DNA of 64,000 bases from a virus (Duplodnaviria > Caudoviricetes). The stretch lies in the IMG/VR virus record IMGVR_UViG_3300010885_031309; one strand, given 5' to 3'. Shown one piece after another: positions 2,759 through 62,934 of this stretch. Positions within the stretch are counted from its first letter, which is position 1; every line of letters begins with the position of its first letter. Position numbers and translations under genes: made by a program. The notes below the pieces were generated by a model, which was given only the letters and a program-made list of their open reading frames with translations, was not told where the DNA came from and did not search any database.

Positions 2759-2765
2759 ATAAATA
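2759..2765 (+). promoter_or_regulatory. T4-type late promoter core ATAAATA
   Basis: The same heptamer precedes many genes: + strand 5645, 6164, 7891, 24549, 29154, 31660, 48284, 48830, 51565, 53770, 55082; - strand 37907-37913, 62485-62491, 63047-63053. It resembles T4 TATAAATA. Confidence 0.75.
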
Positions 2766-2787
2766 CTTTATATTTTGGACCATAATC

Positions 2788-5211
2788 ATGGCTAACATCA
2801 GAAAATTAATTGACATTATTAATGAAACCAGTGCAGGTGCAACTTCATCTGGAAGCGTATCGGTAGTTGAGCAACCGTTATTGAAGCAAAGTAGAGTTGA
2901 AACTCCAGAAGCTCCGCAAATACTTGAATATGGAATGTGGGAGAATAGTGTACTTGCGACCAATAAAAAATTAAAAAAGACTCGCACTAAGGCACGTGAT
3001 GTGGTCAAGAAAATATATGGCGAAGACCAACCAGACAAGCAAAGTGTGTCAGAAAACTCAAAAAAAGTAGCAAAGAAAAAGAGCGACGGTATTCTATGGC
3101 GCGTAGAGCAATCAGAAGCAACTCTAAGATATTATGTTGTCAAGGGCCATCAAAACAAAGAATACTGGACCAATAAGCTAGGGGCTTCTGACTTTAATAA
3201 TAAATCTGATGCTGAAGCAAAAGCAAATGAATTGAATAATAAAGTAGATGAAGGATTCAGTGGTGCTGCTGCAGGAGCTATTGGTGGAGCAATTTTTGGA
3301 AAATCGCCACAGGCGGCTGTAACAGGAGCTAATATTGGTAGTAAAGTACAAGACATGTTTTCTAATGAAGATGTGGCGGAAGACAGCTTACAAGAAATAG
3401 GATACGCTGACAGCCTTGATGATGCTAATTATCCAATAGATAGACTTTTAAAAATCGGTAAGTTATACGATACCATTGAGGGCAATAAAGTAATGACTGC
3501 TGCCACGGGATCAGAAAAAGTGTATTTTTTAGTAGTAGATGATCAAGTTACTGCCTTCTTGGGATTCAAAAATAATCATCTAAAAAACATAAAGAATTTT
3601 ACAAAAACTCCGGGCGTTATCAGAGCGCTGATAGGGTGTTTAGTACACAAGCATGGTCAAAAAATCATTATTTCCAATAGTGAACCACTAACATCAGACG
3701 GTAAAAAATGGGTGCTTCATCTGATACAATCCCCGCGGGGGCTAAACATAGTAGATCAAAACGGCAAGCAGATTGATAGCAGATCGCTAAAACAAGAATG
3801 GTTAGAGGCACGAAAAACTAGCATACCTGGACCTACCAGTGTAGTAATTAGCGAGAACTATGAATTTGGTAATAAATTGCGAGAAAATGAATCGTTGAGA
3901 GAAAGCAATTCATTGCTTATGCCATATCAGTTTTACGACACAAAAATTAAAAAGCAAGTTGTGGCGGAAGCTTTAGTTAATGAAATAGGATTTGCAAATG
4001 AATTAGGCAAATTGTCAATGTCTGAACAAGATATTCTGAATAATAGCATCGTTGACGGACAAATAGGACAGCGAGATGTAATGAGATTTGAAATAGACAA
4101 TAATGCATTATACTTTTTTTCTGGAAAAAATAAAATTGAGGCTCTATTATTGTTAGATGGCTCCAGATTAGCAGCAATAAAAAACTTTACTCAAAATAAA
4201 GGTTTAATTCATGGTTTGTTTAATTACGTAGTGAACATGAAGAGAAAAAAATTAAGAATTGATCCTAATGATCAGTTGTCCCCGTACGGAATAGATTGGT
4301 TACTAAAACAGATTGAACGATCAGATGGTATTAAGATCACCGATTTAAATGGAAAATCAATTAATGCTGATGAATTGAGAAATGAATGGAATAAATCTAA
4401 ATCAGATTCTGATCAAGCCCCAGGATCAATCGGTATTATAATCGGTGAATCTGCTATGGGAAAAAGATTACGAGACAATGAACGCTCATTGATGCCATAT
4501 GACATATTTGGGGTCAATAAACATATTAATAAAGAGCAAGATGTGACGGAAGGCTGGAGCAAAAAGTACAAGCGTAGTATTGATTGCTCACATCCTAAAG
4601 GATTTAGTCAACGCGCTCATTGTGCCGGAAAAAAGAAACACAACGAAAGCATTGAAATGGAAATGATTTGCCCAGATTGTAATATGTGCGAAACACATGG
4701 CAACAACATGATGGAAGTCAAACAGCGATTAGATGCAAAATGCTGGGCGGGAAAACACAAAGAAGGAACTAAGATTAAAGGTGGGGTCAGAGTTAATAAC
4801 TGTGTTCCAAACGAAAGCGTTAGTGAAGATGGAATGTCATTCGGTAATATAGCTTCTGCTTCAATTGGTGGTGGAACAAGTAGCGGCACTAGTGATGGCA
4901 CAAAAATGTTTTTGGAAACAGAAAATGAGCCTAAAGTTAGACGATACAAAGATAACTTTGGACAAGATCATTGGGAAGTTTTAGACTGGAAGGGTCATCG
5001 CGTAATAAGTTTTACTAATCGTTCAGCGGCGCACGAATATCTAAAAAAGAATTTGTATCGTTTAATTGATACTGAAGAATTAGAAGAGGGTGAAAACAAA
5101 CGCATCAAGGGTGGCGACCCATGCAGAAAAAACTATCAAATGGTAGGCATGAAGCAAAAAAACGGTAGATCAGTTCCTAACTGCGTACCAGTATCAAAAA
5201 AGAAAAAGTAA
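2788..5211 (+). CDS. Modular polyprotein with leader, glycine zipper, two tandem GNAT-like domains and Cys-rich mini-modules
   Basis: Start moved to MANIRKLIDIINE, downstream of the late promoter. Duplicated domain of about 180 aa (EIGYAD..MPYQFY / EIGFAN..MPYDIF). Linkers EDVAED, QVVAEA, QDVTEG. Confidence 0.75.
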   Translation: MANIRKLIDIINETSAGATSSGSVSVVEQPLLKQSRVETPEAPQILEYGMWENSVLATNKKLKKTRTKARDVVKKIYGEDQPDKQSVSENSKKVAKKKSDGILWRVEQSEATLRYYVVKGHQNKEYWTNKLGASDFNNKSDAEAKANELNNKVDEGFSGAAAGAIGGAIFGKSPQAAVTGANIGSKVQDMFSNEDVAEDSLQEIGYADSLDDANYPIDRLLKIGKLYDTIEGNKVMTAATGSEKVYFLVVDDQVTAFLGFKNNHLKNIKNFTKTPGVIRALIGCLVHKHGQKIIISNSEPLTSDGKKWVLHLIQSPRGLNIVDQNGKQIDSRSLKQEWLEARKTSIPGPTSVVISENYEFGNKLRENESLRESNSLLMPYQFYDTKIKKQVVAEALVNEIGFANELGKLSMSEQDILNNSIVDGQIGQRDVMRFEIDNNALYFFSGKNKIEALLLLDGSRLAAIKNFTQNKGLIHGLFNYVVNMKRKKLRIDPNDQLSPYGIDWLLKQIERSDGIKITDLNGKSINADELRNEWNKSKSDSDQAPGSIGIIIGESAMGKRLRDNERSLMPYDIFGVNKHINKEQDVTEGWSKKYKRSIDCSHPKGFSQRAHCAGKKKHNESIEMEMICPDCNMCETHGNNMMEVKQRLDAKCWAGKHKEGTKIKGGVRVNNCVPNESVSEDGMSFGNIASASIGGGTSSGTSDGTKMFLETENEPKVRRYKDNFGQDHWEVLDWKGHRVISFTNRSAAHEYLKKNLYRLIDTEELEEGENKRIKGGDPCRKNYQMVGMKQKNGRSVPNCVPVSKKKK

Positions 5212-5230: not shown

Positions 5231-5611
5231 ATGCGAGCTAAAGAATTTATATTAGAATCCAACAGTGTTGTTAAAATAAAACAGCGACTTCCTAAAAATG
5301 CAGAGTCTGCAATGACGGGTGCTCATAGAGTTGCCGGAACTCTAGATCGCACATACGACTTGAACAGAATTATGATGTTATTGGCTGGGACAGATGGTAA
5401 AAATCATACACACGCTTCTCCTCAAAGCTGGGCTGGAAAAAATAATACTGCACATCCATATACCGTAGAAGAACTAAAAATGCTTAAACATGTATATGCT
5501 CTTGCAAATATAGAATGGGATGATGTTATTGCACAAAATTCCTCTAATAAAAGCACTGAACTAGATGACACGAATAAGCGTAGTCCAGTTAACTCATTTA
5601 AGGGATATTAA
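5231..5611 (+). CDS. Hypothetical protein with MRAKEFILE leader
   Basis: ORF with the leader motif shared across the window. Confidence 0.75.
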   Translation: MRAKEFILESNSVVKIKQRLPKNAESAMTGAHRVAGTLDRTYDLNRIMMLLAGTDGKNHTHASPQSWAGKNNTAHPYTVEELKMLKHVYALANIEWDDVIAQNSSNKSTELDDTNKRSPVNSFKGY

Positions 5612-5658: not shown

Positions 5659-6078
5659 ATGAAAACAGCAGAAATAGTATTACAAGAAAATGTTACGAGT
5701 GTTACATGGGCAATAACTTATTTCTCAGAATCTGAATTAAGAAAACCTGCGCTTAGAAGAGTAATAAGTTCAAAGGGTGGATTTGTAACACCAGATGCAG
5801 CGGAAGAATGGGCCAAGACTAACAGAGTTGAGATACAAACACTATACAAAGAGCGTAAAAAGCCAACACAAGAAGCAATAAACCCAAATAATAGAATGGA
5901 TGACATTCCAACAACTACTACGTATATGCTGTATAAAAATACGGGTAATACATGGACTCCAGTTGCAAGATATCAAAGTGAAGCTGAAGCAAGACAGGTT
6001 GGACAAGAGATGATGCAAGAACTTGGCGGTAAGTTCAAAGTTAAAAAAATACAGTATCCTGTAACTAAATATGAATGA
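5659..6078 (+). CDS. Hypothetical two-module protein with MKTAEIVLQE leader
   Basis: ATAAATA at 5645; internal KPTQEA junction. Confidence 0.7.
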   Translation: MKTAEIVLQENVTSVTWAITYFSESELRKPALRRVISSKGGFVTPDAAEEWAKTNRVEIQTLYKERKKPTQEAINPNNRMDDIPTTTTYMLYKNTGNTWTPVARYQSEAEARQVGQEMMQELGGKFKVKKIQYPVTKYE

Positions 6079-6188: not shown

Positions 6189-6629
6189 ATGTTAGCCGAC
6201 ACGCTCAAAGTTATGTACGCTTCCACCTTTGTCTATTTCGTGAAATCGTTTGGATTTCATCATAATATTGAGGGTGAAAATTTCCCACAATACCATGAAT
6301 TTTTAAAAAACATCTATGAAGATGCACAAGATACATTAGATCCTCTTGCCGAATTAATTCGTCAATTAGATAGCTATACTCCTGGCAGTATTGCTCGTTT
6401 CTCTGAATTAAGTCAAATATCAGATCAAACAAAGATCCCACGGGCTGAATTAATGATGGCAGAATTATTCCAAGACAACCAGAAGTTGCTAGAAATGTGG
6501 AAGGCAGCATTCCCGCTAGCTGAAGAAGCAAATGAGCAAGGTATTGCTGATTTTATTGCCGGCAGAATTGATGCACATGGCAAGTGGGGTTGGCAACTAC
6601 GCAGCATTATGAAAAAGGAAAGAGCGTGA
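6189..6629 (+). CDS. dps: Dps/ferritin-like protein
   Basis: FHHNIEGENFPQYHEFLKNIYE, DPLAELIRQL, HGKWGWQLRS; four-helix ferritin pattern. Confidence 0.85.
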   Translation: MLADTLKVMYASTFVYFVKSFGFHHNIEGENFPQYHEFLKNIYEDAQDTLDPLAELIRQLDSYTPGSIARFSELSQISDQTKIPRAELMMAELFQDNQKLLEMWKAAFPLAEEANEQGIADFIAGRIDAHGKWGWQLRSIMKKERA

Positions 6630-7429
6630 AGATACGAGATTTATTAGAGAGTAAAATTCTAGTAGAAGGAGTACATGATCCCGCTATATTTAAGGCTGTG
6701 TTTGTAATTGGCGGCCCAGGTAGTGGTAAGAGTAAAGTTAGTGAATTATTGGCATTAAAATCGTTGGGTTTTGTTACTGTTAATAGCGACGAGGCGTTTT
6801 CTCACTTACTAACAAAACACGGTCTTAGTCTAAAAATGCCCCCAGAGGAAGAAACACAGCGTAGCGTTATGCGATCCCGTGCAAAAGAGATAACAGCTAA
6901 TAAAATGCAGCTTGCTCTTGACGGAAGATTGGGTGTTGTAATTGACGGAACAGGTGAAGATTACAGAAAAATAGCTGCAATTCATACAAACTTGAAAGAA
7001 ATGGGATATGAAAGTTTTTTGATCATAGTATATGCGAGTTTGGAAACAGCACTGCGTAGAAATGCAAAACGAGAGCGTAGTGTTCCAGAAACAATTGTTG
7101 AGAAAAAATGGCGCGGCGTACAAGAAAATTTGGATGAATTTTTGTTGACTTTTGAACACAGTACTATCATTGATAACAATGGAAACTTGAATGAATTAAT
7201 TCCACAGACTGAACATGTTTATAAAATGGTTGCACAGTGGTCTAAATCAGAACCCAGTAGTGATGAAGCTCAAACATGGATCAATGATCAGCTTGGTATC
7301 ACTGATGAACCCGACGAATACGATGATGTTGAAGACGACGATATTGAAGACGATGATATTGAAGATGATGAGCATGAAGATGACACTGACAGTGCTGAAG
7401 ATAACGATACTAATACAAAATTAAAATGA
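6626..7429 (+). CDS. Zeta-toxin/AAA_33-like P-loop kinase with leader and acidic tail
   Basis: GTG start overlapping the dps stop; MKIRDLLE leader; GGPGSGKS Walker A, NSDE, IDGTG, RNAKRER. Confidence 0.75.
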   Translation: MKIRDLLESKILVEGVHDPAIFKAVFVIGGPGSGKSKVSELLALKSLGFVTVNSDEAFSHLLTKHGLSLKMPPEEETQRSVMRSRAKEITANKMQLALDGRLGVVIDGTGEDYRKIAAIHTNLKEMGYESFLIIVYASLETALRRNAKRERSVPETIVEKKWRGVQENLDEFLLTFEHSTIIDNNGNLNELIPQTEHVYKMVAQWSKSEPSSDEAQTWINDQLGITDEPDEYDDVEDDDIEDDDIEDDEHEDDTDSAEDNDTNTKLK

Positions 7430-7903: not shown

Positions 7904-8479
7904 ATGCATATATCAGAAGTCACCGAACAAAACACTGTTGATGATATTTCACCAGAGTTGCAACAGTTAATTGATATCGCCGGCAAAACTGGCGATAAGA
8001 TGGCTGCATCTAGCAAATACAAATATCAATTGTTTGTTCCACGCAAAACTGCGGTGTATGAAGACTTCAAGCCAAATGCAGAGCGCTGGACTAGTACCGC
8101 GATAAAACGCGGAGATACATACACTAGCGAGTGGGTAGAATGGTGTCATTTTAACATGCCACGATGGATAGATAATACTGGAACACTCTATCGTATAGAG
8201 CCTGGAGCAAAAATTCTGCACATTGGCAGTGATCGTCGTGCTATTGAGATTGCTAAATTATTCGGTAGACAATACAAAACTAGAAATTACGAACGATTAG
8301 GAAACTATCCGTGGAAAGAGTTAGGACTGTATTTTGATGCCATACATTATCCGGCAAGATTACGTCGTAGATATGACAACATATTGATGAGTTCATGGGA
8401 TGTAGAAAGCACTGCCTGGTATAACACTAACAAACTCACTGTTATTAAACAAGTGCAAGTTAAGGCGCGAGGTTGGTAG
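7904..8479 (+). CDS. Leader-bearing protein, possible ADP-ribosyltransferase-like fold
   Basis: MHISEVTE leader, ATAAATA at 7891; WTS...FDAIH...WDVES pattern. Confidence 0.55.
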   Translation: MHISEVTEQNTVDDISPELQQLIDIAGKTGDKMAASSKYKYQLFVPRKTAVYEDFKPNAERWTSTAIKRGDTYTSEWVEWCHFNMPRWIDNTGTLYRIEPGAKILHIGSDRRAIEIAKLFGRQYKTRNYERLGNYPWKELGLYFDAIHYPARLRRRYDNILMSSWDVESTAWYNTNKLTVIKQVQVKARGW

Positions 8480-8480: not shown

Positions 8481-10226
8481 ATGAACATATTAGAAGTTAC
8501 ACAACAAGATACTGTTACATTACAAGACTTATATGGCGGAAATTACCCAGACGATACTGAGTTATTTTGGCAATTCGTAACTCCTGGTGACTTAACTGTT
8601 CCGTTGACAATAGAGCGACTAAGTTCACACAAAATTAAATCAATATTTGAAATTCAATATCATGTTGATGACATAGAAGATTTATTGTTTCGTCTGCGAG
8701 ATGAACAAAAAGAAACACTAGCACAGTATAGAGCAAGTACGCAGCTTGCTAATAGCATAGTAATTATTGCTGCTGGAAAAATCATTGACGGCAATCATAG
8801 AGCGTTGGCGGCAGCATTAAACAACATGTCTATCAGAGCCGTTGATTTATCCGAATTAGATGAAACAAGAACGGATGAAATGTTGAATGAATTAAACTTC
8901 AATAAATCGGTTCAATACACTAGAGACGCAAAACCCAAATCTCCCATGATATCAGATGAGATTAGCTTTACGGCAGAAATTCCAATCAATGATGTGATCA
9001 CTGATAAATTAAATGTTGTTTTTGATGTCTATAATGTCTACAAAAAAGAAAAAGCATTGGAAATATCATTTTCCGTCAATGATGACTGGGAGCCTACTGG
9101 TCGTGGAAACTTTGTGTTGATATTATCAACTGTAAAGTCTATAGTTTCTAATGAATTGCCAAAAATATTGAATGCTGATCAGCAAATTGTAAGACTTGTT
9201 TTTACTGCCGCTCGTGACCAGTCAGGAAGAGTAAAACACTATCGCAACACTGTTGTTCCATTTATCACCACTCTTCTAAACAAAACAAATAACACTGGTG
9301 GTTGGGTATACAGTGAAGATAATAAATCTGAACTACACAATATTCGGTTTGTATGGGAAAAAAACGCACAGCAAATTCCAGTGGATGAAATGGCAATGAA
9401 AAGTTACACACCACTCGGTGATTTTAGTGCACCGGGACCATTCAAAGACCCAGATTACAAATTGGTAGTTCATCCTACACACATTAAGAAGGTTGAAAGC
9501 TTCTTTAAGAACACCAACCAAGATTTTAGATTTTTCGTATCCAACTTACCTAAATTAAGAAAATATCGCGAGAGTGGAGAAGCAACCGCAGAAGAACTGG
9601 AAAAAATATTTGGACCAAAAATCTCACAGCAAATACTACAAGGGTCAGATGAAGCCATAACAGTAGTGTTTATGGGCAACTATGGTCTTAATAGAGTTAT
9701 GATGACTCCCTGGACTATGGCACATAGAATAGGACATGCCATCGCCGCCAGTGACGGTTATGGTACTAATACTCAGAGATCTATTCCAGAATGGCCAAGA
9801 TTGCGAGATGAATTCAGAAAGAGCACAGAAAAAATACTATCAACTTATTATGGAGTCTATTCTTCTATTATGCCATATGGCCGTTATTCTTATATTGAAG
9901 ATGCTAAAAGAGCATTGTATTACGGGCTTGGCACAACAAAGTCAAGTAGAGAACGCAACTTAAACACTTCAACTGAATTTATATATGAACAGTTAGCTCT
10001 TTTTATTTTAAAGGGCACTGTAGTTCTGAATCCGCTGCCAGTGAGCGTTGGGTACGGTCGTGTAGTAGGATGGAAGAACAAATCATACGAAAAGTATTTG
10101 AACATTAAATCAGAATTTCGCGATGAACCAGCGAGACAGCAAGCATCACAAAAATTAGCACATGAGTTGAACGGTTTACTGAACGATTTCTTATGGGCTG
10201 CTGTTGGTCGTGTGTTCATTATGTAA
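8481..10226 (+). CDS. Polyprotein: ParB/Srx-like + GNAT-like + HRxGH zincin-like domains
   Basis: IIDGNHRALAA; TGRGNFVLILSTV...FTA...R..HY; WTMAHRIGHA...EFIYE. Confidence 0.75.
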   Translation: MNILEVTQQDTVTLQDLYGGNYPDDTELFWQFVTPGDLTVPLTIERLSSHKIKSIFEIQYHVDDIEDLLFRLRDEQKETLAQYRASTQLANSIVIIAAGKIIDGNHRALAAALNNMSIRAVDLSELDETRTDEMLNELNFNKSVQYTRDAKPKSPMISDEISFTAEIPINDVITDKLNVVFDVYNVYKKEKALEISFSVNDDWEPTGRGNFVLILSTVKSIVSNELPKILNADQQIVRLVFTAARDQSGRVKHYRNTVVPFITTLLNKTNNTGGWVYSEDNKSELHNIRFVWEKNAQQIPVDEMAMKSYTPLGDFSAPGPFKDPDYKLVVHPTHIKKVESFFKNTNQDFRFFVSNLPKLRKYRESGEATAEELEKIFGPKISQQILQGSDEAITVVFMGNYGLNRVMMTPWTMAHRIGHAIAASDGYGTNTQRSIPEWPRLRDEFRKSTEKILSTYYGVYSSIMPYGRYSYIEDAKRALYYGLGTTKSSRERNLNTSTEFIYEQLALFILKGTVVLNPLPVSVGYGRVVGWKNKSYEKYLNIKSEFRDEPARQQASQKLAHELNGLLNDFLWAAVGRVFIM

Positions 10227-12784: not shown

Positions 12785-13506
12785 AAACAAAAGAAATAAT
12801 TTCAGAAGTTAAACTGCCAGCGACACTTCGGAGTATTCTTTATAACAAGGGATATAAATTTCTTGGAGCTGGAGTTGAACACAGTGTGTGGCAGGGTCCA
12901 GACAACTATGTTTACAAAATATTGCCTCCGCGATTTATCAAGGAAGAAACAGCAAAAGAACTTCACTTTGGCAGTCTAAGCCCAGAAGACTTGTACATGA
13001 CAGCATCTCAGCGTTGTTTTATCAGTTGGGTTGAGTATTGTCAACAACATCAATCAAATAATTTCTTGCCATTTTTTGACGACTGGCAACCATTCACGCA
13101 CAAGTTTATTCGCAACGACAAAACTTACTACTACATGTATATACAGTGTAGAACAGAAAGATTATTTCAGTTGTCACTAGAATGGAGCAGAGCATTACAA
13201 GAATTGGCACATGATATTACAGTTGGAAAACTACCCAAAGATCGTTTATATGATAGATTAAAATATGATTTATACGATCAGCGAGTATACGAGGTAATTA
13301 GTCATATGGGAGCAAAAGAGACAGGCATATTCTATGACACGATAGTTGAACTAGAACAGATAGCAAAAACCAACAGTTATAGACTTGATCTACACGGTGA
13401 TAATTTTATGTTGGGCAGCGATGGACATATAGTAATCAATGATCCATTTTTTATTAGATACAGCAATGCTTCTACTCTTGGAACAAATTATTTTAATATG
13501 AGCTAA
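12781..13506 (+). CDS. Protein-kinase-like (APH/PK fold) enzyme with leader
   Basis: LGAGVEHSV...VYKI...DLHGDNFM...IVINDP; MKTKEIISE leader. Confidence 0.75.
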   Translation: MKTKEIISEVKLPATLRSILYNKGYKFLGAGVEHSVWQGPDNYVYKILPPRFIKEETAKELHFGSLSPEDLYMTASQRCFISWVEYCQQHQSNNFLPFFDDWQPFTHKFIRNDKTYYYMYIQCRTERLFQLSLEWSRALQELAHDITVGKLPKDRLYDRLKYDLYDQRVYEVISHMGAKETGIFYDTIVELEQIAKTNSYRLDLHGDNFMLGSDGHIVINDPFFIRYSNASTLGTNYFNMS

Positions 13507-48865: not shown

Positions 48866-48881
48866 CACATAGGACTACAAC

Positions 48882-50955: not shown

Positions 50956-50956
50956 A

Positions 50957-51592: not shown

Positions 51593-53146
51593 TTGGATCC
51601 AATAGCAATAAGAAATATACTTAACAAAGTTAATATGATCACTGAAAGCACTGGCTTGGCTGGACGCAAGCCGGGTGCTGTGTTTACTGATAGTCAAACG
51701 AATGAACAAATAACATTCGTTGATCTACAGTTTTATCCTGAGGAGGGTGGAAAATTTCTCCCAGATGATTTAACAAAGGCGATCACACATATTGAATCCA
51801 AGATAGATGATCCTATTCAGTGGGAAAATCAGCGTGGACCAAGAACTGGCGGTTTTGCAATTGCTACTTTTACGACATCAGATAATAAAACTCTGGCTGT
51901 AGGAACATATCTACAAGAAATAAAGCAAATAGCAACACAAAATTATGTGTCTAACACAGTGTTGGGCAGATATAAGTTTTCTGGGAAAGCAGCAGCAAAA
52001 ACTCAAGCTGGATTAACTCCACAGGATCTATTGGAAAAAAGAAATGGCTTGTCTGTAGCAGAAATAATGAATCAACTTGCAAAGAAATTGGGCACAGATG
52101 ATGCACTATATCATGTTGCTCATCATGTTGCTCTTGGACAGCCATTGCCATTTGAATTTGATGCACCAGAGGGACAAAGCTTCACGGCATTTCGTGATTA
52201 CTTCTGTGAGATACTACAGCCGATTGCACTACACAAGGGCTTGTATAGTGGAAACGCTGGAGAAGCAGCAGAAATATTCTTGGGTGCAAGAGGGTTTGAA
52301 TCAACCAAGATTAACTTTGACGCTGCAAAAAATGCTGGTCTAAGTGATAGCATTCTCGATACTGCAGATGGTAAGTATGTAAAAGTAAGCAGTAAGGGTG
52401 ATAAGGGTGCAGAAGCCAGTGCTAAGAACTTGATTGATAGCGTAGATGAATTGGCCGAAACAGATCGTGGCAAAAAATTATTGGACAAGTATAAAACGAC
52501 TATTGATATAGTCAGAGAAATTCAGAAGCAGGGTCAAAGTGGAGCTCCATTGTATCTAGGAGTAAAATATGACGTGATCACTGAACAGGAATCAACTATT
52601 GTAAAGGGTCTAAAGAATGCTGGTCCAGTAGATATTAATAATGTAGAGCAATTAAAGGAAGCCAAGTTAACATCCACGCTGATAGAGTTGGCACAGAGTC
52701 GTGGAACAAAAACTCCCGAACGCACCAGTCTGTTCTATCACTTAATTGCTGCGATAGCACATAAAGCGGCAGATCAAGTAAATGAAAAAACCAATTTCAG
52801 TGATGCTGCGTCAGACATTCTAAACAACGGTGCTCTGGTTCAAGTATATACACAGGCAAAAGAAAAAAATGGAAAATGGGTGTTAGAGGGATTTGATACA
52901 GTTTACCCAGGAACTTCGGTAAGTGGAGTTGTATTAAGTGCCAAGAAAAATTATGCTAGTACAGCTATCAAAGGAAACTTTACCTTCAAAATTCTGCGAG
53001 GTAACGCAAAAGTAGCACCAGAAGATGATACTGAAGAAGTTGCTGTGCCCACTGAAGTTGATGACACTGTTCGTGAACCCGGAGAAAGAGTGTCTGTTAC
53101 CAAGGGTGAAAAGGCTAAACTGGGAGCAGGACGCGCTCGCAGATAA
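51593..53146 (+). CDS. Large leader-bearing protein, possible PD-(D/E)xK nuclease fold
   Basis: TTG start after ATAAATA at 51565; FCEIL...LSDSIL...VKVSSKG. Confidence 0.6.
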   Translation: MDPIAIRNILNKVNMITESTGLAGRKPGAVFTDSQTNEQITFVDLQFYPEEGGKFLPDDLTKAITHIESKIDDPIQWENQRGPRTGGFAIATFTTSDNKTLAVGTYLQEIKQIATQNYVSNTVLGRYKFSGKAAAKTQAGLTPQDLLEKRNGLSVAEIMNQLAKKLGTDDALYHVAHHVALGQPLPFEFDAPEGQSFTAFRDYFCEILQPIALHKGLYSGNAGEAAEIFLGARGFESTKINFDAAKNAGLSDSILDTADGKYVKVSSKGDKGAEASAKNLIDSVDELAETDRGKKLLDKYKTTIDIVREIQKQGQSGAPLYLGVKYDVITEQESTIVKGLKNAGPVDINNVEQLKEAKLTSTLIELAQSRGTKTPERTSLFYHLIAAIAHKAADQVNEKTNFSDAASDILNNGALVQVYTQAKEKNGKWVLEGFDTVYPGTSVSGVVLSAKKNYASTAIKGNFTFKILRGNAKVAPEDDTEEVAVPTEVDDTVREPGERVSVTKGEKAKLGAGRARR

Positions 53147-55093: not shown

Positions 55094-55654
55094 ATGAGAG
55101 AAATTATTAATTTGGTTGAAAGTAAATCTCAGTCAAAAGATGAGATTGAAATAGTAAATCTTTCTTATTCGTCTAGTGCTCTTAGTCCAGTATTTTCATC
55201 ATCTCTGATGAAGCTGCACTACGAAAAGCTAGCTCATGGGTATGCAGAAAGATTTAATAAAAAAGAGGGTGACCCAACCTTCAATTATGCTGGCGCCTGG
55301 CTGCATAATGTGTTCTTTACGCAATTCAGACCTTCGCGTATGAACAATGTTCCCAACGGTCCAATTGGGAATATGATAAAAACCAAATTCAAAAGCTTTG
55401 ACGCATTCAAAGATGCATTTGAGCAAGAAGCCATGAAGCTACATGGCAGCGGATGGTTATACTTGGCTCGCGATGCTAGTATTAAAAGTATAAATAATCA
55501 TCAAGTCCGTAATGATATTCTAATCTTGGTAGACATGTGGGAACATGCTTATCAGCATGATTATGGTTCTAATAAACAAAAATATCTGGATAATATCTGG
55601 AAAATAATGGACTGGAATGTGTTGAACACAAGATGGGGACAGGGATACAAATGA
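55094..55654 (+). CDS. sod: Fe/Mn superoxide dismutase with an MREIINLVE leader
   Basis: LHYEKLAHGY, LHNVFF, GSGW, DMWEHAY; start moved downstream of ATAAATA at 55082. Confidence 0.88.
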   Translation: MREIINLVESKSQSKDEIEIVNLSYSSSALSPVFSSSLMKLHYEKLAHGYAERFNKKEGDPTFNYAGAWLHNVFFTQFRPSRMNNVPNGPIGNMIKTKFKSFDAFKDAFEQEAMKLHGSGWLYLARDASIKSINNHQVRNDILILVDMWEHAYQHDYGSNKQKYLDNIWKIMDWNVLNTRWGQGYK

Positions 55655-56205
55655 AAGCCCACGAGTTCTTAACTGAAATTGGTTCATTTAATTACAAGTT
55701 CAAAGAAGAGCCATATTACTTAGAAGACAACAAGAATTGGCAAAGAATACTATTCAATATTGCGAACAAAGTGGCTAGCTATTTTTCCAGACCTGTAGCT
55801 GGTAAAAAATATACATTCAGCACTGACAGTGGTGCGAAATACGAGGTGTATTTGGATCTATATATGAAATCGGGTCTAAACATACGATTTTTTTATGTTA
55901 ATCGTAGTGGAATCAGATTGCACAAACTTACTGGAACTGCTGCTGGAGAAGAGTTGAGAATCATAAGCACAGTAAGACAAATAGCAAAAAAATACATAGA
56001 CGAAGTACATCCGTCTGTTATAGCCTTTAGTGCCGTTGAATTAAAAGAAACATCCAGATTCAGCTTGTATGACAGAATTGCTAGAGATTTTAGCAGATAT
56101 TTTCCAGAATACAAGTTTCGCTCTAGTAAAGACACTCAACACGGAAAGACTTGGTTTTTTGGAAGAACAGAAAATTATGACAATACAGCTAACACAAGAA
56201 GCTAA
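55651..56205 (+). CDS. GNAT-like protein with an MKAHEFLTE leader
   Basis: TGTAAGEELRIISTV...FSA...SRFSLY; same domain as the middle of 8481-10226. Confidence 0.65.
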   Translation: MKAHEFLTEIGSFNYKFKEEPYYLEDNKNWQRILFNIANKVASYFSRPVAGKKYTFSTDSGAKYEVYLDLYMKSGLNIRFFYVNRSGIRLHKLTGTAAGEELRIISTVRQIAKKYIDEVHPSVIAFSAVELKETSRFSLYDRIARDFSRYFPEYKFRSSKDTQHGKTWFFGRTENYDNTANTRS

Positions 56206-56506: not shown

Positions 56507-56704
56507 TTATTCTTTTTTGTTGATTTTTGTAATTTCAGAGTAGGTTACAATTTTTCCGTTACTCAAAAGATATTTTGAACCTTCAACAGCAGTGACACTA
56601 CATGATTGTCCTTTATATTGTACAGTGTCACCAGCTTTAATTGGATTCTGACTATATGATTTATAGCTGTTATAGCCCTCAACAAGCACTTCGTGTATTT
56701 TCAT
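56507..56704 (-). CDS. Small SH3/KOW-like protein with an MKIHEVLVE leader
   Basis: IKAGDTVQYKG..C.VTAV. Confidence 0.65.
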   Translation of the reverse strand: MKIHEVLVEGYNSYKSYSQNPIKAGDTVQYKGQSCSVTAVEGSKYLLSNGKIVTYSEITKINKKE

Positions 56705-57975
56705 GATTCATCCATTTTAGTATTAAACCAGGGATCAACTATTACCAGTGTACCATCTTTGCGTTCCATGACATTTTCGGTATGTAGATCCCAGCCCTGT
56801 TTATCTAGCTTTCCACGCTTGTATAATAATCTCATCATTGAATAAAGAATATCAAACTTTACATAAGTCATTGCATCCAGGGACTTTAATTTTTTGATTA
56901 ATTCTTTATCAGTCGGCGGAGCATCCCAATGCTTCCATGTAGTTGGCTTTAACATTTCCGTGTAGGCTTGTTCCCAAGTCTTATCTTTTGCAGCTAGATC
57001 ACTCATCATCCATACTAGTGCTTGACTAAAACTACCGTCTTTTAATGGGCGTAGTCGTTCCATGCCAATCATAGTAAATTCGCGATTGTCTGCTTCAAAA
57101 GTAGCGTGATGGCCATCCTTTGTAATTTGTACAAACTTTGGTAGATTTGGTTGATCACTATTTTTCATACAGAATTCATAAAATAGCTTGAATGTTTTAA
57201 CTGCACCACTCATACTATCACGATCTTCTGGCATAATAATTTTGATAACGCTCTCGTCGTCTTTTGCCCAGACTGTTGCTTCAGCGCCACTTCCTAATTT
57301 TTTGTATCCCATTTCCTTGAATACTTTGTTTATTTCTTTTGATGCTTTGGTTCTAGTTTCTGCTTCGCTGATTAAATCAGAATTATTCAATAATTTTACT
57401 GATCCGTTATCGTTGACAAAGTATGGAAAGAATTTAATATCCGGATATTCTTGCTTTAATTTTGAAAATACACGAAGATTGGTCATGCTATCATCATACA
57501 TACTAACACGATAGTAGCGACCAGTATCTAAATATCGTCTGACAAATACTGCTTTTCTTTCTGCTGGTGTAGTTGGTTGTTCTAAATTTCCAGCACGATG
57601 TACATGTACGCGACTCATATCTATACCATACTTGGCAAAAGTTTGTAGAAATGTGTCGCGATCATCAAAATCACTACGAGCAGTAAGCATTATGATTTTA
57701 CAATTGGTTGCTACTTTAAGTATTGCTTTTAGTTTAGCTATCATTGGTCTGATAGGCTCACTCTCACGATTGAATTTTTCTGCGTTACGAAATTCTCCAA
57801 AATCAAACTGTTCATCTGGTTCTGGTTGATATGTATTGTATTCTTTATTGGTAAGACTACGAACTACTTTACCATTTTTGATGACATTTATTTTAGCCGT
57901 AGTATGAAACAGCGTGTCATCTATATCCATGATTATTAGATGTTCAGACTTTGAGTTTATATCTCTAATTCTCAT
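56701..57975 (-). CDS. HAD-superfamily phosphatase fused to a protein-kinase-like domain
   Basis: DIDDTL, LTARS, YDDS..NL; LGSGAEATV..VIKI...DLHTENVM..VIVDP; junction LISEAE. Confidence 0.8.
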   Translation of the reverse strand: MRIRDINSKSEHLIIMDIDDTLFHTTAKINVIKNGKVVRSLTNKEYNTYQPEPDEQFDFGEFRNAEKFNRESEPIRPMIAKLKAILKVATNCKIIMLTARSDFDDRDTFLQTFAKYGIDMSRVHVHRAGNLEQPTTPAERKAVFVRRYLDTGRYYRVSMYDDSMTNLRVFSKLKQEYPDIKFFPYFVNDNGSVKLLNNSDLISEAETRTKASKEINKVFKEMGYKKLGSGAEATVWAKDDESVIKIIMPEDRDSMSGAVKTFKLFYEFCMKNSDQPNLPKFVQITKDGHHATFEADNREFTMIGMERLRPLKDGSFSQALVWMMSDLAAKDKTWEQAYTEMLKPTTWKHWDAPPTDKELIKKLKSLDAMTYVKFDILYSMMRLLYKRGKLDKQGWDLHTENVMERKDGTLVIVDPWFNTKMDES

Positions 57976-58090: not shown

Positions 58091-58501
58091 TCATTGTTCA
58101 TCCAATAGCATTATAGGATCGCCACCGGCATCTCCTATTATTTCAAACCCATAATTTTTATACCAATCAACGATACTGAACTCATTACTTTCATGTACAT
58201 CAGCAATTAACAGTATCGCTTCAGCACCCCTGTCATATGAATCATCTATAGCATTATTTAGCAGATTGCTACCTAAACCCTGCCCTCTTGAATCATCATC
58301 AATATACATGTTCTTAATAATACTTATTCTGCCAAATTTACTAGCGATATTGTTTATCAGTTGTTCAGATGCACCTTGAGATTCTAAGTAATTTTTCAAT
58401 TGTGACTTATCAGTGTCTACCACGTAACCCTCAAGTGCACCACCATCAATACTTTTTGATATCATTTGTATAGATTCGATTAGTAATTCTTTGATCTTCA
58501 T
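58091..58501 (-). CDS. GNAT acetyltransferase with an MKIKELLIE leader
   Basis: MYIDDDSRGQGLGSNLL...WYKNYGF. Confidence 0.85.
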   Translation of the reverse strand: MKIKELLIESIQMISKSIDGGALEGYVVDTDKSQLKNYLESQGASEQLINNIASKFGRISIIKNMYIDDDSRGQGLGSNLLNNAIDDSYDRGAEAILLIADVHESNEFSIVDWYKNYGFEIIGDAGGDPIMLLDEQ

Positions 58502-58503: not shown

Positions 58504-59946
58504 TTACATCACAAATATTTTACCAACGCTGTCACTCAACACATCATTGAACAACAATTCCATTGTATATGCTAAACGTTCGGCTTTTTGCTTTCTTGAA
58601 AGTTCATCACGATATTCAGGTTTAATGTTTAGATATTTTGTAGGTGTTCCCCATGCTTGTCTTCCGTAACCTAAATTAGTTGGTAATAGATTAAACGTGA
58701 CTTTGCCTGTGCCTAAATATTGTGCAAATATTTCATATAAGAATTCATATGGACGTTTAATCTGATTACTTCTACTACTACGTTGTGTGCCTAATGCATT
58801 GAACAGTGCATTATACTCGGGGGTCAAATCCCACTTGATTAGAGTATTGTATGTGTTTGCACCCCTATATGCTTTGCCATAGTGTTCTTCTAACACTGAA
58901 TTTACAGTTTCAAAGAAATACTTTTCTGCTTCAGCCCAAGCCTTCCAATTCTTGTTTTCATATGCAGCCTCTGCCCCTATAGCGTGTCCAAATCTATGTG
59001 CCATCATCCATGGCGTAAGCATTACTTTACTATCACCCTTGTTGCCCACATACACTACAGTTATAGCATCTTCACTGCCATTGATAATTTCTTCAGCCTG
59101 TTCTTTACCAAAAATTTGCATAATCTGCTCTGGGGGCATTGCACCGTATTCACTATACTTCCCAGTGCCGGGCACGTTACTAAAGAATAAACGGAAATCG
59201 TAGGGTGTTTTTTCAAAGAATGTAGTAGCTTTTTCTATGTTCTTGGGATGTGGCACAAGGTTTTTATCTGCTCCGCGAAATGGTCCTGGCTTAGTAAAGT
59301 CACCAAACGGTTGATACTTGGCTAATGCCATTTCACCTACTGTGTCTTCCGCCACGCCTTGGTTTGGTCTGCTTAATGTATGCTTTTCTGTTCTATAATC
59401 GTATGTAGCACCTAACTTCTTATATATTTCTCTTGCTGCGTTGTTATGGTCTTGATCAGAAATGATATTGTAGTGCTTGGACAATCCTTTTAGAAAGTCA
59501 GTGTAAATGCCTTTGCCTCTTAACTTTTCATCAAAGACTTCAGAGTATTGAACTTCAACCGTATCGTTGTAAACATCGGCCCAAACACCTAATACTGTTT
59601 TACCTTTACTGTCTTTCACTCTAATAAAGGTGTTTGCTTCAGCGCCAGATTTCCAGGGTACTTCGTCACCGGGTTCAAATGACCATGTGTAGCCCGATGG
59701 TGTTTTGCCGCTGACAGATTCCGTAACATCTTGCTTGTCAAGTTTCTCTAAACGATGTATCTCATCGGCAACCTGTGTCCAATAACGATATTGTGGAGTA
59801 TTACTTTCATAACTCATGGCATGGTCGTTGGCACGTTGAGCAGCAGTATAGGAATGATCTTTATACCGATCATACATTCGTTTTGCCGTTGACTTTACTT
59901 CTAAGTCACTGGAATTATTTTCAACAATAAAATCATTTGCTCTCAT
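58504..59946 (-). CDS. Polyprotein: small helical module + GNAT + HRxGH zincin-like domain
   Basis: MRANDFIVE leader; linkers QDVTES and QGVAED; RGKGIY..A..IY.KLG; WMMAHRFGHA. Confidence 0.8.
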   Translation of the reverse strand: MRANDFIVENNSSDLEVKSTAKRMYDRYKDHSYTAAQRANDHAMSYESNTPQYRYWTQVADEIHRLEKLDKQDVTESVSGKTPSGYTWSFEPGDEVPWKSGAEANTFIRVKDSKGKTVLGVWADVYNDTVEVQYSEVFDEKLRGKGIYTDFLKGLSKHYNIISDQDHNNAAREIYKKLGATYDYRTEKHTLSRPNQGVAEDTVGEMALAKYQPFGDFTKPGPFRGADKNLVPHPKNIEKATTFFEKTPYDFRLFFSNVPGTGKYSEYGAMPPEQIMQIFGKEQAEEIINGSEDAITVVYVGNKGDSKVMLTPWMMAHRFGHAIGAEAAYENKNWKAWAEAEKYFFETVNSVLEEHYGKAYRGANTYNTLIKWDLTPEYNALFNALGTQRSSRSNQIKRPYEFLYEIFAQYLGTGKVTFNLLPTNLGYGRQAWGTPTKYLNIKPEYRDELSRKQKAERLAYTMELLFNDVLSDSVGKIFVM

Positions 59947-59956: not shown

Positions 59957-60883
59957 TTAAATTGCCAATACATCAATGAACACAATATTGTTTCTACGCG
60001 GATCCCACATTACGTTATCGTCGTGAAGATCCAGTCCACCATGTTTTACCGACATTCTGAATAATTCAGTAGCTAGCTCAGACAGATCTGGATCTTTTTT
60101 GATACTGTTTTCTGCAATCACTTTCCAGTGTTTGGCATCAAAGAACCACATGTAATTTAAACGCTTTGATGGCTTACTACGCATAATATCTGTTGCTAAA
60201 TTGTCTGAAAGAAAACCGATGATATAGTTAACAAAGTTATTAATTACATCAGGATTAGTTATCTTTTCTAATTTGCGTAGATACAGTATACCTATTCTTT
60301 CATTTGTTTTAATAGTGTCGTCTTTTCTCAAGTGTTTGTATAGCTTAACGACACTACCATCTTCATATGGTATGATTTCTGGAACATATTTGTTATTTTG
60401 ATGAGCGACCATCCATCGTAAATATTCAGCATAACCACGATCATTTGAAAATATCTTTAATACTGTAGCATTGTTTTTTGGATCTTGCAGCACGGTTGCA
60501 TAGTGTCCAGTACCAACAATTTGCATACCCTCGCCCTGTTTACGAAGTGCTATCTCAGTGTGTCTTTCCGAGCTAGGCATAAATGATAGTGCTTCGTCAG
60601 TAATTTCATACTCACTTAAATCTTTCTTTGGCGGAATAAAAAATATTCTGGTTCGTCTGACATCATGTGGGTCTCGTTCCCATATAGTTTCATTATTAGC
60701 CGCATCTTTTACTAGCCAATGACTTGGAGCTTCTCCTTCTTCATCACGCACTTCTTGCTCGGCGGCTCCAATAGCTTCATCGCGATCATAAAAAGTGTCT
60801 ATTAGATGATCATAACAATACAACTGATATCTATTTTTGTAATCAGTAGCATCATATTCAGTGATAAAATCATTTGCTCTCAT
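59957..60883 (-). CDS. Small module + protein-kinase-like domain with an MRANDFITE leader
   Basis: VGTGHYATV...VLKI...DLHDDNVM...VFID. Confidence 0.75.
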   Translation of the reverse strand: MRANDFITEYDATDYKNRYQLYCYDHLIDTFYDRDEAIGAAEQEVRDEEGEAPSHWLVKDAANNETIWERDPHDVRRTRIFFIPPKKDLSEYEITDEALSFMPSSERHTEIALRKQGEGMQIVGTGHYATVLQDPKNNATVLKIFSNDRGYAEYLRWMVAHQNNKYVPEIIPYEDGSVVKLYKHLRKDDTIKTNERIGILYLRKLEKITNPDVINNFVNYIIGFLSDNLATDIMRSKPSKRLNYMWFFDAKHWKVIAENSIKKDPDLSELATELFRMSVKHGGLDLHDDNVMWDPRRNNIVFIDVLAI

Positions 60884-60904: not shown

Positions 60905-62461
60905 TCATATTCTTCTCATTATTGAATAGCCACCAACTTTTGCCATTTCAAACCAAATTGGGCGTTTTGCAGTCGGACTCTGTACCGCTTCAGAATCTTT
61001 AATTTTTCTTATGTCTACATTTCTTGTTATTAAATCGGCTATATCGTTTATGCTTACTGAATCACGACCGCGACCAGATTCTGATTCTAAAGCTTTAGCG
61101 AATACTTTTTCCATGGCTATTATACTATCCATAGAATCATCGTCATCATCTTTTTCGTTGTATATCTTCATAATCTGTTTGTAATTTAGTTCAGCAACAT
61201 ACTTTACATCATTATAAAATCGTCTGGCAGAGTCGTTATAGTTCAAATAATCTAATTCAGAGTTGTCAGCTACTTTATCCCAGTCAATGCCTTCATCTTC
61301 AGTTTTGTATTCTGGGTTTTCATCTACAAACCCAACAATATAATCATAATAGTCATCATCAGACCTGTTCATATCTTCTATCATTGAATTTGCTGTGTCC
61401 ATTGCCATCTCGCCTATTGTTTTCCATATCTTTTCAACAACTTCTGAATCGGCGAATATAACAGCTTCTGATAGTTTTGGTTCCAATTTCAGAAATATCT
61501 CTCGTAATTCGGGAAATCTTTTCTCAAACAAGACGCTTACACTTATCGGGTCATCGTTCTCGTTCATAAACTGATTACTATTTACATGAACTTGATATTT
61601 TTCACCCTCATATGTAGGCGTCTGAGGTATGATAATATACATTGGACCCTGACGATTATAATAGTCAAACTGATTTGTTCTAGGAGGTATGTATGCTGTA
61701 CACCACTCAGTTGGTCCTCCTAACACACGACCAAAATATAATGATGCCGCTTTGTCTCGCGGATGTATGACTACTACATCACTTGCTATTTCTACGGCGG
61801 GAGCACCACTGATTAAATCATTAGTAACAGCTAATTTACCGTATACAACATCATACTCGCCCATGTTATAGGCAATGCCCTCTGGATCATTTGGGTTAAA
61901 TCTAGCTACGATAGAGTGTAATTGCTGTGCTGTTAAGCGAACAATATCTTTTGCTTCTTGTGGGAATCCACGACGACGCTTGTTTGCTTCGTATAGTACC
62001 AAATCGGCAGCGGCGTCGGTAACATCTTCTAACAATCTAATATTGTTATTAGCGTATTCTCTTAGTATCCACGGGATGTATTTACGAATGCTATGATTCG
62101 TATAAGTTTCAATATATTCAGCGATATATAGCGATGTCAGTTCATCATCAATTAGTTTTCTAAACTCTGGTTTTCTTATAATATCACTGTATCTTACATC
62201 ATTGATGTTAATAGTCAAATAGTTAACGTTTTGATTATAAACCATGAGTTTAAGATGATTCATCAATGATTGAGCATTATTAAGCCCTAATTGTATTTCT
62301 CTGAGAAAAATCAAATCGTGCGCGGCTTCTTCTCTCGCACGATTATAATCAATCATCAAAAACTTATCAGTTAATTTTTTACGAAACGCTGGATTACGCA
62401 GCGTAATCTCGCGATTGTATTCTAATAATACTTGTTCTGTGATAAATTGATATGCTCGCAT
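60905..62461 (-). CDS. PcfJ-like domain protein with an MRAYQFITE leader
   Basis: TEWCTA...NQFDYY..QGPMYII...KYQVH...FMNENDD. Confidence 0.65.
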   Translation of the reverse strand: MRAYQFITEQVLLEYNREITLRNPAFRKKLTDKFLMIDYNRAREEAAHDLIFLREIQLGLNNAQSLMNHLKLMVYNQNVNYLTININDVRYSDIIRKPEFRKLIDDELTSLYIAEYIETYTNHSIRKYIPWILREYANNNIRLLEDVTDAAADLVLYEANKRRRGFPQEAKDIVRLTAQQLHSIVARFNPNDPEGIAYNMGEYDVVYGKLAVTNDLISGAPAVEIASDVVVIHPRDKAASLYFGRVLGGPTEWCTAYIPPRTNQFDYYNRQGPMYIIIPQTPTYEGEKYQVHVNSNQFMNENDDPISVSVLFEKRFPELREIFLKLEPKLSEAVIFADSEVVEKIWKTIGEMAMDTANSMIEDMNRSDDDYYDYIVGFVDENPEYKTEDEGIDWDKVADNSELDYLNYNDSARRFYNDVKYVAELNYKQIMKIYNEKDDDDDSMDSIIAMEKVFAKALESESGRGRDSVSINDIADLITRNVDIRKIKDSEAVQSPTAKRPIWFEMAKVGGYSIMRRI

Positions 62462-62520
62462 AGACTAAATCTTAGTTGATTTAGTATTTATGCGTGATTT
62501 GCCGATACTGTAACTGTTAT

Positions 62521-62934
62521 TTAATCGCCAGCTTCCATCACTTCAAATGTAGTTGGCCATGATCCTTTAAACCCACCTGGTCCGTTTGGAGCTCTAGGAA
62601 TACCAGGCATGTTTCTGTAATGATCGTAATTTGTATTATCGCGACAGTGCGACATTAATCTTTCTGCCATGGTTTCTGCTACATCTGAGCTAGCATAAGT
62701 AGCTACCACGTGCCAGCCACCGCGATGTGCTCTCATCATTCTCTTAAAAGCACCCTGCTCAGATAATCCTAAAACTGAACGCAGTGCTTCAAGTACCACT
62801 TCAAATGGAGTAACATTGTCGTTTAGCAATACAACATTGAACCCACCTGGTTTGTCCAACTCAATTTCTTGTGGCTGTTTAACTGGTGGTCTATCAAGCA
62901 CTTCTAATTCATTGAGTAGTTTTCTAAAGTTCAT
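62521..62934 (-). CDS. clpS: Second ClpS-like protein with an MNFRKLLNELE leader
   Basis: FNVVLLNDNVTPFEVV..L...A...M..AH..G...V. Confidence 0.8.
   Translation of the reverse strand: MNFRKLLNELEVLDRPPVKQPQEIELDKPGGFNVVLLNDNVTPFEVVLEALRSVLGLSEQGAFKRMMRAHRGGWHVVATYASSDVAETMAERLMSHCRDNTNYDHYRNMPGIPRAPNGPGGFKGSWPTTFEVMEAGD

Follow-up and report, generated by a model that had tools for sequence, protein, structure and literature searches.

A T4-like N-terminal leader shared by unrelated genes of an uncultured jumbo phage: a probable capsid-targeting signal on enzyme cargo

A 64-kb stretch of DNA (the window; IMG/VR record IMGVR_UViG_3300010885_031309, 37% GC) from an uncultured, T4-related jumbo phage was analysed for a short peptide, here called the leader, with which about 20 of its genes begin. 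The leader is interpreted, with reasonable confidence, as a capsid-targeting sequence (CTS) and prohead-protease leader of the T4 type that has been extended to a large, enzyme-rich set of cargo proteins. Judged from their sequences, the leader proteins are probably carried in the virus particle, while delivery of the cargo into the host is a further inference and is given slightly less than an even chance. The window was compared with the complete IMG/VR genome G002 (367,104 bp), with G001, G003 and G004, and with Pseudomonas phage PA5oct. The DNA polymerase of the window showed 47% identity to that of PA5oct and 68% to that of G002. A megablast of the window against the phage collection gave no match, and among cultured phages no close relative was found outside the PA5oct group.

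The occurrence of the leader was analysed over the 99 called genes of the window. The pattern ^M[KRHN]..[EDQ][FILV] was present at 18 of the 99 gene starts against 0.92 expected (binomial P = 3e-18), the expected counts being derived from the rate of the same pattern at internal protein positions. The fuller pattern with [LIV]-x-E added was present at 10 of the 99 starts against 0.12 expected (P = 1e-16). Independent shuffling of each N-terminal column (2000 shuffles) gave a mean of 5.3 matches and a maximum of 13. Four further proteins carried variant leaders, namely those starting at 2788 (MANIRKLIDIINE), 24580 (MRYKDFSINQINE), 51593 (...NKVNMITE) and 55094 (MREIINLVE). A phi-x-E motif ended at residue 8-18 in 17 of the 22 leader proteins and occurred only at residue 5 or residue 20 in four of them; protein 56701 had no phi-x-E within its first 25 residues. 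About six or seven matches were partial only (8481, 13558, 31684, 34230, 36344, 57975 and 62934), and 13558, 36344 and 34230 are candidates added in this analysis. The leader of the ClpS-like protein and about six partial leaders are regarded as doubtful. The preliminary description of this DNA had given 20 N-termini, and all of them were read as written, the gene at 6626 having a GTG start and that at 51593 a TTG start. The leader genes were grouped in three clusters, at 2.8-14.5 kb, at 51.6-56.2 kb and in a minus-strand array at 56.5-62.9 kb. They are listed below with coordinates, strand and product (lengths in amino acids, aa; distances in nucleotides, nt).

2788..5211, plus strand: 807-aa protein, variant scaffold-type leader MANIRKLIDIINE, resembling the scaffold N-termini MDNKKFEKLIDLIINE (G002) and MSHRKELEKVLDLLLNE (PA5oct gp151); ATAAATA at 2759, 22 nt upstream
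5231..5611, plus strand: 126-aa protein, full leader MRAKEFILE; the G002 homologue (41% identity) starts MRANEFISE
5659..6078, plus strand: 139-aa protein, leader MKTAEIVLQE; ATAAATA 7 nt 5' of the ATG
6626..7429, plus strand: P-loop kinase (Zeta_toxin/AAA_33), leader (V)MKIRDLLE; GTG start overlapping the ferritin-like gene's stop
7904..8479, plus strand: 191-aa protein, leader MHISEVTE; ATAAATA 6 nt 5' of the ATG
8481..10226, plus strand: 581-aa protein, partial leader MNILEV; the C-terminal 280 aa are paralogous to the 58504-59946 protein
10241..12784, plus strand: 847-aa amidoligase-like and gamma-glutamyl cyclotransferase (GGACT) protein, leader MKTNEITLTE
12781..13506, plus strand: 241-aa protein, full leader MKTKEIISE; weak T7 gp0.7-like kinase match
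13558..14472, plus strand: 304-aa dCMP/cytidine deaminase-like protein, partial leader MKISDF; doubtful member
24580..26718, plus strand: 712-aa protein, long leader MRYKDFSINQINE; paralogue of the amidoligase region of 10241; ATAAATA 24 nt upstream
31684..31866, plus strand: 60-aa protein, partial leader MKINEV; ATAAATA 17 nt upstream
51593..53146, plus strand: 517-aa protein, variant leader of 18 aa, (L)MDPIAIRNILNKVNMITE; TTG start with a GGGAG Shine-Dalgarno (SD) site and ATAAATA 21 nt upstream; in the relative L008 this ...NKVNM(L)TE stretch is likewise encoded by the bases 5' of the called ATG
55094..55654, plus strand: Fe/Mn superoxide dismutase (SOD), leader MREIINLVE; 17-aa N-terminal extension made up of leader and linker; ATAAATA 5 nt 5' of the ATG
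55651..56205, plus strand: 184-aa protein, full leader MKAHEFLTE; coupled in translation to the SOD gene; metagenome contig L012 likewise carries it as a called gene
56507..56704, minus strand: 65-aa protein, full leader MKIHEVLVE
56701..57975, minus strand: 424-aa HAD-like phosphatase (DUF2608) and T7 gp0.7-like kinase, partial leader MRIRDINSKSE; HAD DxDxT from residue 17
58091..58501, minus strand: 136-aa GNAT acetyltransferase, full leader MKIKELLIE
58504..59946, minus strand: 480-aa protein, full leader MRANDFIVE
59957..60883, minus strand: 308-aa T7 gp0.7-like protein kinase, full leader MRANDFITE; first 20 nt identical to those of the adjacent gene starting at 59946, as had been observed before, with no BLASTP similarity between the two proteins
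60905..62461, minus strand: 518-aa protein, leader MRAYQFITE; ATAAATA 23 nt upstream; head of the minus-strand array
62521..62934, minus strand: 137-aa ClpS-like protein, weak leader MNFRKLLNE; doubtful member; the ClpS-like protein of L008 starts MKKKLDENK and has no leader

BLASTP among the leader proteins revealed three paralogous groups (10241 with 24580, 12781 with 56701, and 8481 with 58504); the rest were unrelated, and about 14 or more independent families bear the leader. The earlier claim that unrelated proteins begin with a common pattern was borne out by this result and by the enrichment. The carriers included a Zeta-toxin/AAA_33 P-loop kinase, an amidoligase-like and GGACT protein, a GNAT, an Fe/Mn SOD, three T7 gp0.7-like kinases, of which one is joined to a HAD phosphatase-like domain, a ClpS-like protein, a deaminase-like protein and several proteins without any match. 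The leader was absent from the genes for DNA polymerase, the RNase H-like exonuclease, the ligases, ClpX, both ClpP, Hsp20 and IF1, in agreement with the previous remark that the replication and Clp core genes generally lack it. The codons at the conserved leader positions were also analysed. Position 2 was encoded by AAA (6), AAG (4), AGA (4) and CGA (2), position 5 by GAA (9), GAT (5), GAG (2) and GAC (1), and the hydrophobic position by TTT, ATA, TTA, GTC, GTT and GTG, and this variation matched the rest of the genome. As synonymous codons vary at conserved positions, selection acts on the peptide, and the shared leader is a peptide-level rather than an RNA-level signal.

The leader was compared with the CTS of T4, which has the sequence MKTYQEFIAE. 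In T4 it is the CTS that attaches IPI-III and Alt to the core of the prohead, and gp21 cuts it off (PMC7411985). The other T4 N-termini, read from NC_000866, were MLKEQLIAE (gp22), MAKINELLRE (gp24), MELITELFDE (Alt), MNEPQLLIE (gp21) and MEGLIE (gp67). One regular expression written on the T4 internal proteins, gp22, gp24, Alt and gp21 matched 9 N-termini of the window against 1.6 expected (P = 3e-5). The dominant leader of the clade is MRAxEFIxE, which appears in the window as MRAKEFILE and MRANDFI(V/T)E, in G002 as MRA(S/T)EFITE and in L008 as MRADQFITE, and it holds the E-F-I-x-E core of the T4 CTS one residue nearer to the Met. The likeness to the T4 CTS proposed earlier is sustained by the regular expression and by this comparison. 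Both signals lie at the extreme N-terminus, extend over about 10 residues with a basic residue 2 and an E-F-I-x-E core, end in the gp21 consensus [LI]-x-E and stand on unrelated cargo including an enzyme (Alt in T4), and both occur in lineages with TATAAATA-type late promoters, predicted as such in the window, and with a head module of portal, core, S77 protease and gp23, read here in the relatives. The two differ in that the window leader is one residue shorter, is present on about 20 genes in 64 kb compared with 4 in T4, occurs in at least two sub-types, is known here from sequence alone, and stands mostly on large enzymes (median pI, the isoelectric point, 6.3) rather than on small basic DNA-binding proteins. 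The leader proteins had a median pI of 6.25 and the other proteins 6.27, which is no difference, and a basic character of the cargo like that of the T4 internal proteins was therefore rejected. The CTS of the T4 internal proteins and its removal by gp21 were reportedly described by Mullaney and Black in 1996. The N-terminal E-phi-phi-x-E pattern is likewise shared with the propeptides of the T4 prohead core and vertex proteins (gp22, gp21, gp24, gp67 and gp68), and the scaffold-like proteins of G002, G001 and PA5oct start ...LIDLIINE or ...LLLNE, like the window protein 2788. These T4 proteins differ in being structural assembly proteins that are degraded or trimmed, whereas the window proteins are mostly enzymes without detectable similarity to core proteins.

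The head module of the relatives was also of the T4 type. Peptidase_S77 and Gp23 were encoded in G002, G001 and G004, and in PA5oct, which likewise has a portal of the T4 type, gp152 is the S77 protein and gp154 the Gp23 protein. The G002 module lies in T4 gene order and starts with the portal (Portal_T4), followed by these members:

Module position 2: 75-aa protein, starts MKLFEMFDQ (PA5oct gp150 starts MKINDIITE)
Module position 3: scaffold-like protein, starts MDNKKFEKLIDLIINE
Module position 4: protease, starts ...SMVVE
Module position 5: 366-aa protein, starts MFDAIKPLLDTGIINE
Module position 6: Gp23 capsid protein, starts MSQVLLESRWDETKEALLE-GLKG

G001 and G004 had the same head module. 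Core and capsid proteins of both G002 and PA5oct have N-termini with [LIV]-x-E, so the proteins expected to undergo processing in the lineage share leader-type N-termini; the window protein 2788 mimics the scaffold type. G003, which has a leader-bearing SOD and no S77 match, was considered as a counter-example and rejected, as its record ends inside the capsid gene.

The virion data of PA5oct were then used to examine the association of the leader with particles. The PA5oct GenBank record flags 93 proteins detected in virions by mass spectrometry in tandem mode with electrospray ionisation (ESI-MS/MS) (Lood et al., PMC7318152). A leader was present at the annotated start of 7 of these 93 proteins compared with 6 of the 352 others (P = 0.008), and with our own gene calls in 7 of 91 detected against 5 of 261 others (P = 0.016). 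The seven detected leader proteins were gp150, gp205, gp230, gp238, gp349, gp380 and gp381, of which gp150 (MKINDIITE) directly follows the portal gene. Besides ClpS, the only PA5oct homologues of window leader proteins were gp261 (SOD, with the N-terminus ...YISIAE) and gp205, and both were detected in virions. This virion association is supportive of packaging and not decisive.

The ATAAATA element was analysed as the candidate promoter of these genes. The window contained 35 ATAAATA sites against 36.6 expected, showing no over-representation, and 16 of the 35 lay 5-28 nt 5' of a same-strand gene start (P = 4e-18). The start-proximal sites were:

Plus strand: 2759..2765, 5645, 6164, 7891, 21740, 24549, 26751, 29154, 30027, 31660, 47987, 51565, 53770 and 55082
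Minus strand: 50263 and 62491

The spacing from ATAAATA to the start in the window fell into two classes of 5-7 nt and 17-28 nt. An ATAAATA of their own was found for 8 of 22 leader genes compared with 8 of 78 other genes (odds ratio 5, P = 0.007), and the leader genes without one followed such a site in closely packed runs on the same strand. In PA5oct the element preceded 21 of 91 virion-protein genes against 13 of 261 others (P = 3e-6), and in G002 it stood 6 nt 5' of the portal gene; these positions support the reading of ATAAATA as a late, virion-gene promoter similar to the T4 late promoter. About half of the ATAAATA-driven genes of the window lack the leader, so the promoter and the leader are associated and not equivalent. 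In G002, 49 of 53 ATAAATA genes, including those for huge structural proteins, had no leader. As most G002 late genes and the PA5oct tail proteins lack it, the leader is not a general late-gene feature. The earlier statement that most leader genes sit behind ATAAATA or are coupled to a gene that does was retained for the own sites and the runs. Over the window and G002 together the spacing was bimodal, with 4-7 and 15-29 nt. A distance of 5-7 nt to the ATG was seen for eight window genes (sites 5645, 7891, 21740, 26751, 29154, 30027, 53770 and 55082) and one of 4-7 nt for 26 G002 genes (L098-L116), including the portal gene. The late mRNAs with a spacing of 4-7 nt would, from the position of the element, have no untranslated leader or nearly none.

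The conservation of the leader was followed in the homologues of single proteins. For the SOD, 120 homologue clusters were present among the matches listed, with 59-99% identity and the same length. Nearly all of those examined start MR(D/E)(I/L)I.L(L/I/V)E, after which come a linker that varies, about 7 residues long, and the SOD fold, and more than 100 metagenomic clusters keep this order of leader, variable linker and enzyme. In an alignment of 46 sequences the leader residues R2, I5, L7 and E9 were at least 90% conserved. Cellular SODs, judged by comparison with E. coli SodB, are not known to have the 17-residue extension. The 28 homologues of the 518-aa protein keep MRAxEF(L/I)xEY down to 27% identity with two exceptions, one being N-terminally truncated and the other having a marginal E-value. 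This family ranges over 400-760 aa and has the invariant core ...GRGTRWCTAA...YN.QGPLYIL.PK...GEKYQLHF...FMDE.D after the leader; in relatives it forms paralogue arrays (L008 3942-14436, PA5oct gp203-gp206). The AlphaFold2 (AF2) model of the 518-aa protein (mean predicted local distance difference test score, pLDDT, 82.5) placed residues 3-8 in a low-confidence helix with a break before the protein body. Foldseek of this model returned no PDB match with E below 1, VIA-align in its wide mode gave a best Z of 6.2 over helical segments only, a hidden Markov model search of PDB sequences gave no match, and a search for related loci in IMG/VR gave none.

In the kinase homologues P0151 and P0152 of the protein 59957 (45-48% identity, 61% query coverage) the leader MKIHDIINE was fused directly to the kinase domain, whereas the window kinase has MRANDFITE and an extra segment of about 100 aa. 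The leader variant and the linker are therefore swapped among kinase orthologues, yet the leader always stands at the extreme N-terminus. Turnover of the leader genes was high. A G002 homologue covering half the length was found for 2 of 19 leader proteins (at least 100 aa) compared with 26 of 43 others (P = 3e-4), and the leader clusters hold their position in G002, beside the DNA polymerase and beside the SOD. The leader genes are replaced fast, which fits accessory or arms-race cargo similar to the T4 internal-protein loci. As in these T4 loci, a conserved address is here combined with hypervariable cargo.

The following mechanism is proposed. The leader would be a peptide of 9-18 residues, probably helical, of the form M-[KR]-(A/T/I)-x-[EDQ]-[FILV]-[ILV]-x-E, with a second, scaffold-like form ...L-I-D-I-I-N-E. 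The proteins would be synthesised late from ATAAATA promoters and docked by the leader onto the scaffolding core during prohead assembly, and a gp21-family (Peptidase_S77) protease would cut after the Glu of [LIV]-x-E. The cargo, consisting of the P-loop and T7 gp0.7-like kinases, the HAD phosphatase-kinase, the GNAT, the amidoligase/GGACT protein, the SOD and proteins of unknown fold, would stay in the head and probably enter the next host with the DNA. The idea of a virion-loaded enzyme arsenal, put forward in the preliminary description with ClpS as one of its members, was upheld in part. A CTS-type leader on diverse late enzymes is in accordance with the T4 likeness, the peptide-level nature of the signal, the S77 module of the relatives and the [LIV]-x-E sites on their scaffold and capsid proteins, the PA5oct enrichment and the conservation in SOD; the ClpS leader was not conserved and several leaders were partial.

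Several observations weigh against this mechanism. The protease, scaffold and capsid genes of the window phage itself lie outside the 64 kb, and its leader proteins are known from their genes alone. The terminal [LIV]-x-E is missing from several leaders (13558 and 57975) and other leaders are only partial. The leader proteins make up 38% of the coding residues of the window and include proteins of 700-850 aa, which is far beyond the T4 precedent. The G002 leader was not significantly linked to a directly adjacent ATAAATA. The PA5oct enrichment comprises only 13 leader proteins, and ribonucleotide reductase, thymidylate synthase, ClpP and FtsH appear in the same proteome as obvious contaminants, so that detection there is not proof of packaging.

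Other explanations of the leader were weighed against capsid targeting of cargo. The leader could serve assembly only, in which case the proteins would be targeted to the core and cleaved, and then mostly be degraded or expelled like T4 gp22, gp67 and gp68 or act only in head maturation, with no delivery to the next host. Scaffold and core proteins of T4 indeed have the same type of N-terminus and are degraded (PMC7411985), the window proteins 2788 and 51593 carry scaffold-like leaders, and the large leader proteins contain many internal [LIV]-x-E sites. This is nevertheless considered unlikely, as the cargo consists of folded enzymes with likely host targets (T7 gp0.7-like kinases, GNAT and SOD), the late synthesis of such enzymes is most sensible if they are carried to the next host, and PA5oct homologues were detected in mature virions. 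The leader may instead be a tag read by another co-encoded machine, either as a Clp degron or adaptor signal or for modification by the RimK-like ATP-grasp or amidoligase proteins. ClpX, two ClpP, two ClpS, RimK-like ATP-grasp and amidoligase-like proteins do adjoin the leader arrays, and cleavage behind the first acidic residue would leave F, L, I or V at the new N-terminus, which is partly N-degron-like. Such a role is judged improbable: T4 has the same motif without Clp or ATP-grasp genes, the gp21 cleavage consensus closes the motif, which also matches the scaffold and capsid N-termini of the relatives, the leader proteins of PA5oct are enriched in virions and not absent from them, and the RimK and GT4 genes are not beside the leader clusters of G002.

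Many leader genes have no SD site, and three leader genes stand only 5-7 nt behind ATAAATA, so that their mRNAs would be nearly leaderless. This could also point to a translation-initiation feature of late mRNAs that lack an SD site or a leader, one that works as a downstream enhancer or by way of the nascent peptide and has no sorting role. The conservation at the amino-acid level with free synonymous variation makes this very improbable, as do the five of eight window genes spaced at 5-7 nt, and the majority of the 26 comparable G002 genes, that have no leader; about 40% of the leader genes do have an SD site, and the tail and baseplate late genes are without the leader. It was also considered that the common 5' ends have no function and are relics of duplication or recombination between gene starts, as could be supposed from the two adjacent genes with the same first 20 nt and from the paralogy of some leader proteins. 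This is scarcely credible in view of at least 14 unrelated families, of a leader that persists, beside a varying linker, in homologues of as little as 27% identity and in more than 100 SOD clusters, and of leader codons that differ between genes.

The proposed T4-type targeting was further compared with other systems that load proteins into shells. In phiKZ-like giant phages many proteins are loaded into the head and the prohead protease cuts after Glu (PMC7411985; PMC13282480). This loading (phiKZ gp175, SPN3US gp245) resembles the present case in the giant phage, the diverse head cargo and the cleavage after Glu. It differs in propeptides of tens to more than 100 residues without a common N-terminal consensus, in a separate phage lineage, and in the cleavage motif A/S/G-X-E, which has a small residue at P3 where the window leader is hydrophobic. 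The cargo-loading peptides of encapsulins are a functional analogy only, in which a short conserved peptide sends unrelated enzymes into an HK97-fold shell; they are usually C-terminal, uncleaved and unrelated in sequence, and neither a protease nor DNA packaging is involved. In the literature search no description of a CTS in PA5oct- or RaK2-like phages was found, and the MIJ3 paper contained nothing on SOD or propeptides. Systems of this kind are known from T4, and the literature searched contains no description of one on this scale, with such enzyme cargo or in a jumbo clade related to PA5oct.

The gene content of the window apart from the leader genes was identified by Pfam and PHROGs. It included a family-B DNA polymerase that is split, an RNase H-like 5'-3' exonuclease, a UvdE endonuclease, one ligase each for RNA and DNA, Hsp20, a ferritin-like (Dps-like) protein, ClpX, two ClpP, two ClpS, a RimK-like ATP-grasp protein and a GT4 glycosyltransferase. 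IF1 and ribosomal protein S21 homologues were identified separately. The remaining features of the window were:

833-2724, plus strand: RimK-like ATP-grasp ligase and GT4 glycosyltransferase, directly 5' of the first leader cluster; the G002 GT4 homologue is distant from the main G002 leader clusters
6189-6629, plus strand: ferritin-like (Dps-like) gene inside a leader cluster, with its own ATAAATA and no leader
15070-17268 and 17371-18390, plus strand: DNA polymerase in two consecutive open reading frames, both matching the PA5oct polymerase, which is likewise split, by a homing-endonuclease gene
46829-51565: proteostasis and translation set of the phage itself, with ClpX, an S21-like protein, Hsp20, ClpS and two divergent ClpP paralogues with 25% identity between them
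54846-55064: IF1 gene
62521-62934: second ClpS-like gene
63053-63484, minus strand: staphylococcal-nuclease-like protein with a signal-peptide-like N-terminus (MKLLITLLLATV...), adjoining the leader array

The pairing of a ferritin gene with a leader gene recurred on an unrelated-looking 46-kb metagenome contig (L010, 7520-7963), which additionally encodes CsgG/CsgF, FecR and a CHASE2 cyclase. The L008 counterpart of the staphylococcal-nuclease-like gene (14451-14882) has ATAAATA 6 nt 5' of the ATG, and the protein may be a secreted late nuclease, as suggested by its N-terminus.

The T4 CTS has already been used for loading foreign proteins into capsids, and the short, portable leader could serve the same purpose in jumbo-phage capsids. 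The cultured relative PA5oct carries the same leader on a handful of virion proteins, which makes the idea testable there. Should the leader be a capsid address tag, the proteins that an uncultured giant-phage clade carries into its hosts could be listed by a simple rule applied to the sequence, and normally only virion proteomics of cultured phages reveals such cargo. With the predicted cargo, the injected phage effectors would reach well past T4 Alt and the internal proteins, to protein kinases related to the host-shutoff kinase of T7, GNAT, SOD and amidoligase-type enzymes, and its fast turnover points to an arms-race function. More tentatively, this uncultured freshwater jumbo clade might use the CTS-like leader as a general label, preloading dozens of rapidly exchanged enzymes, among them T7 gp0.7-like protein kinases, a phosphatase-kinase, acetyltransferases, an amidoligase/GGACT protein and a SOD, that would be injected as a host-takeover and counter-defence kit. 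If this is true, the leader alone would predict the 'ejectome' of any member of the clade from its sequence, and over a third of the coding capacity in some genome regions would be virion cargo.

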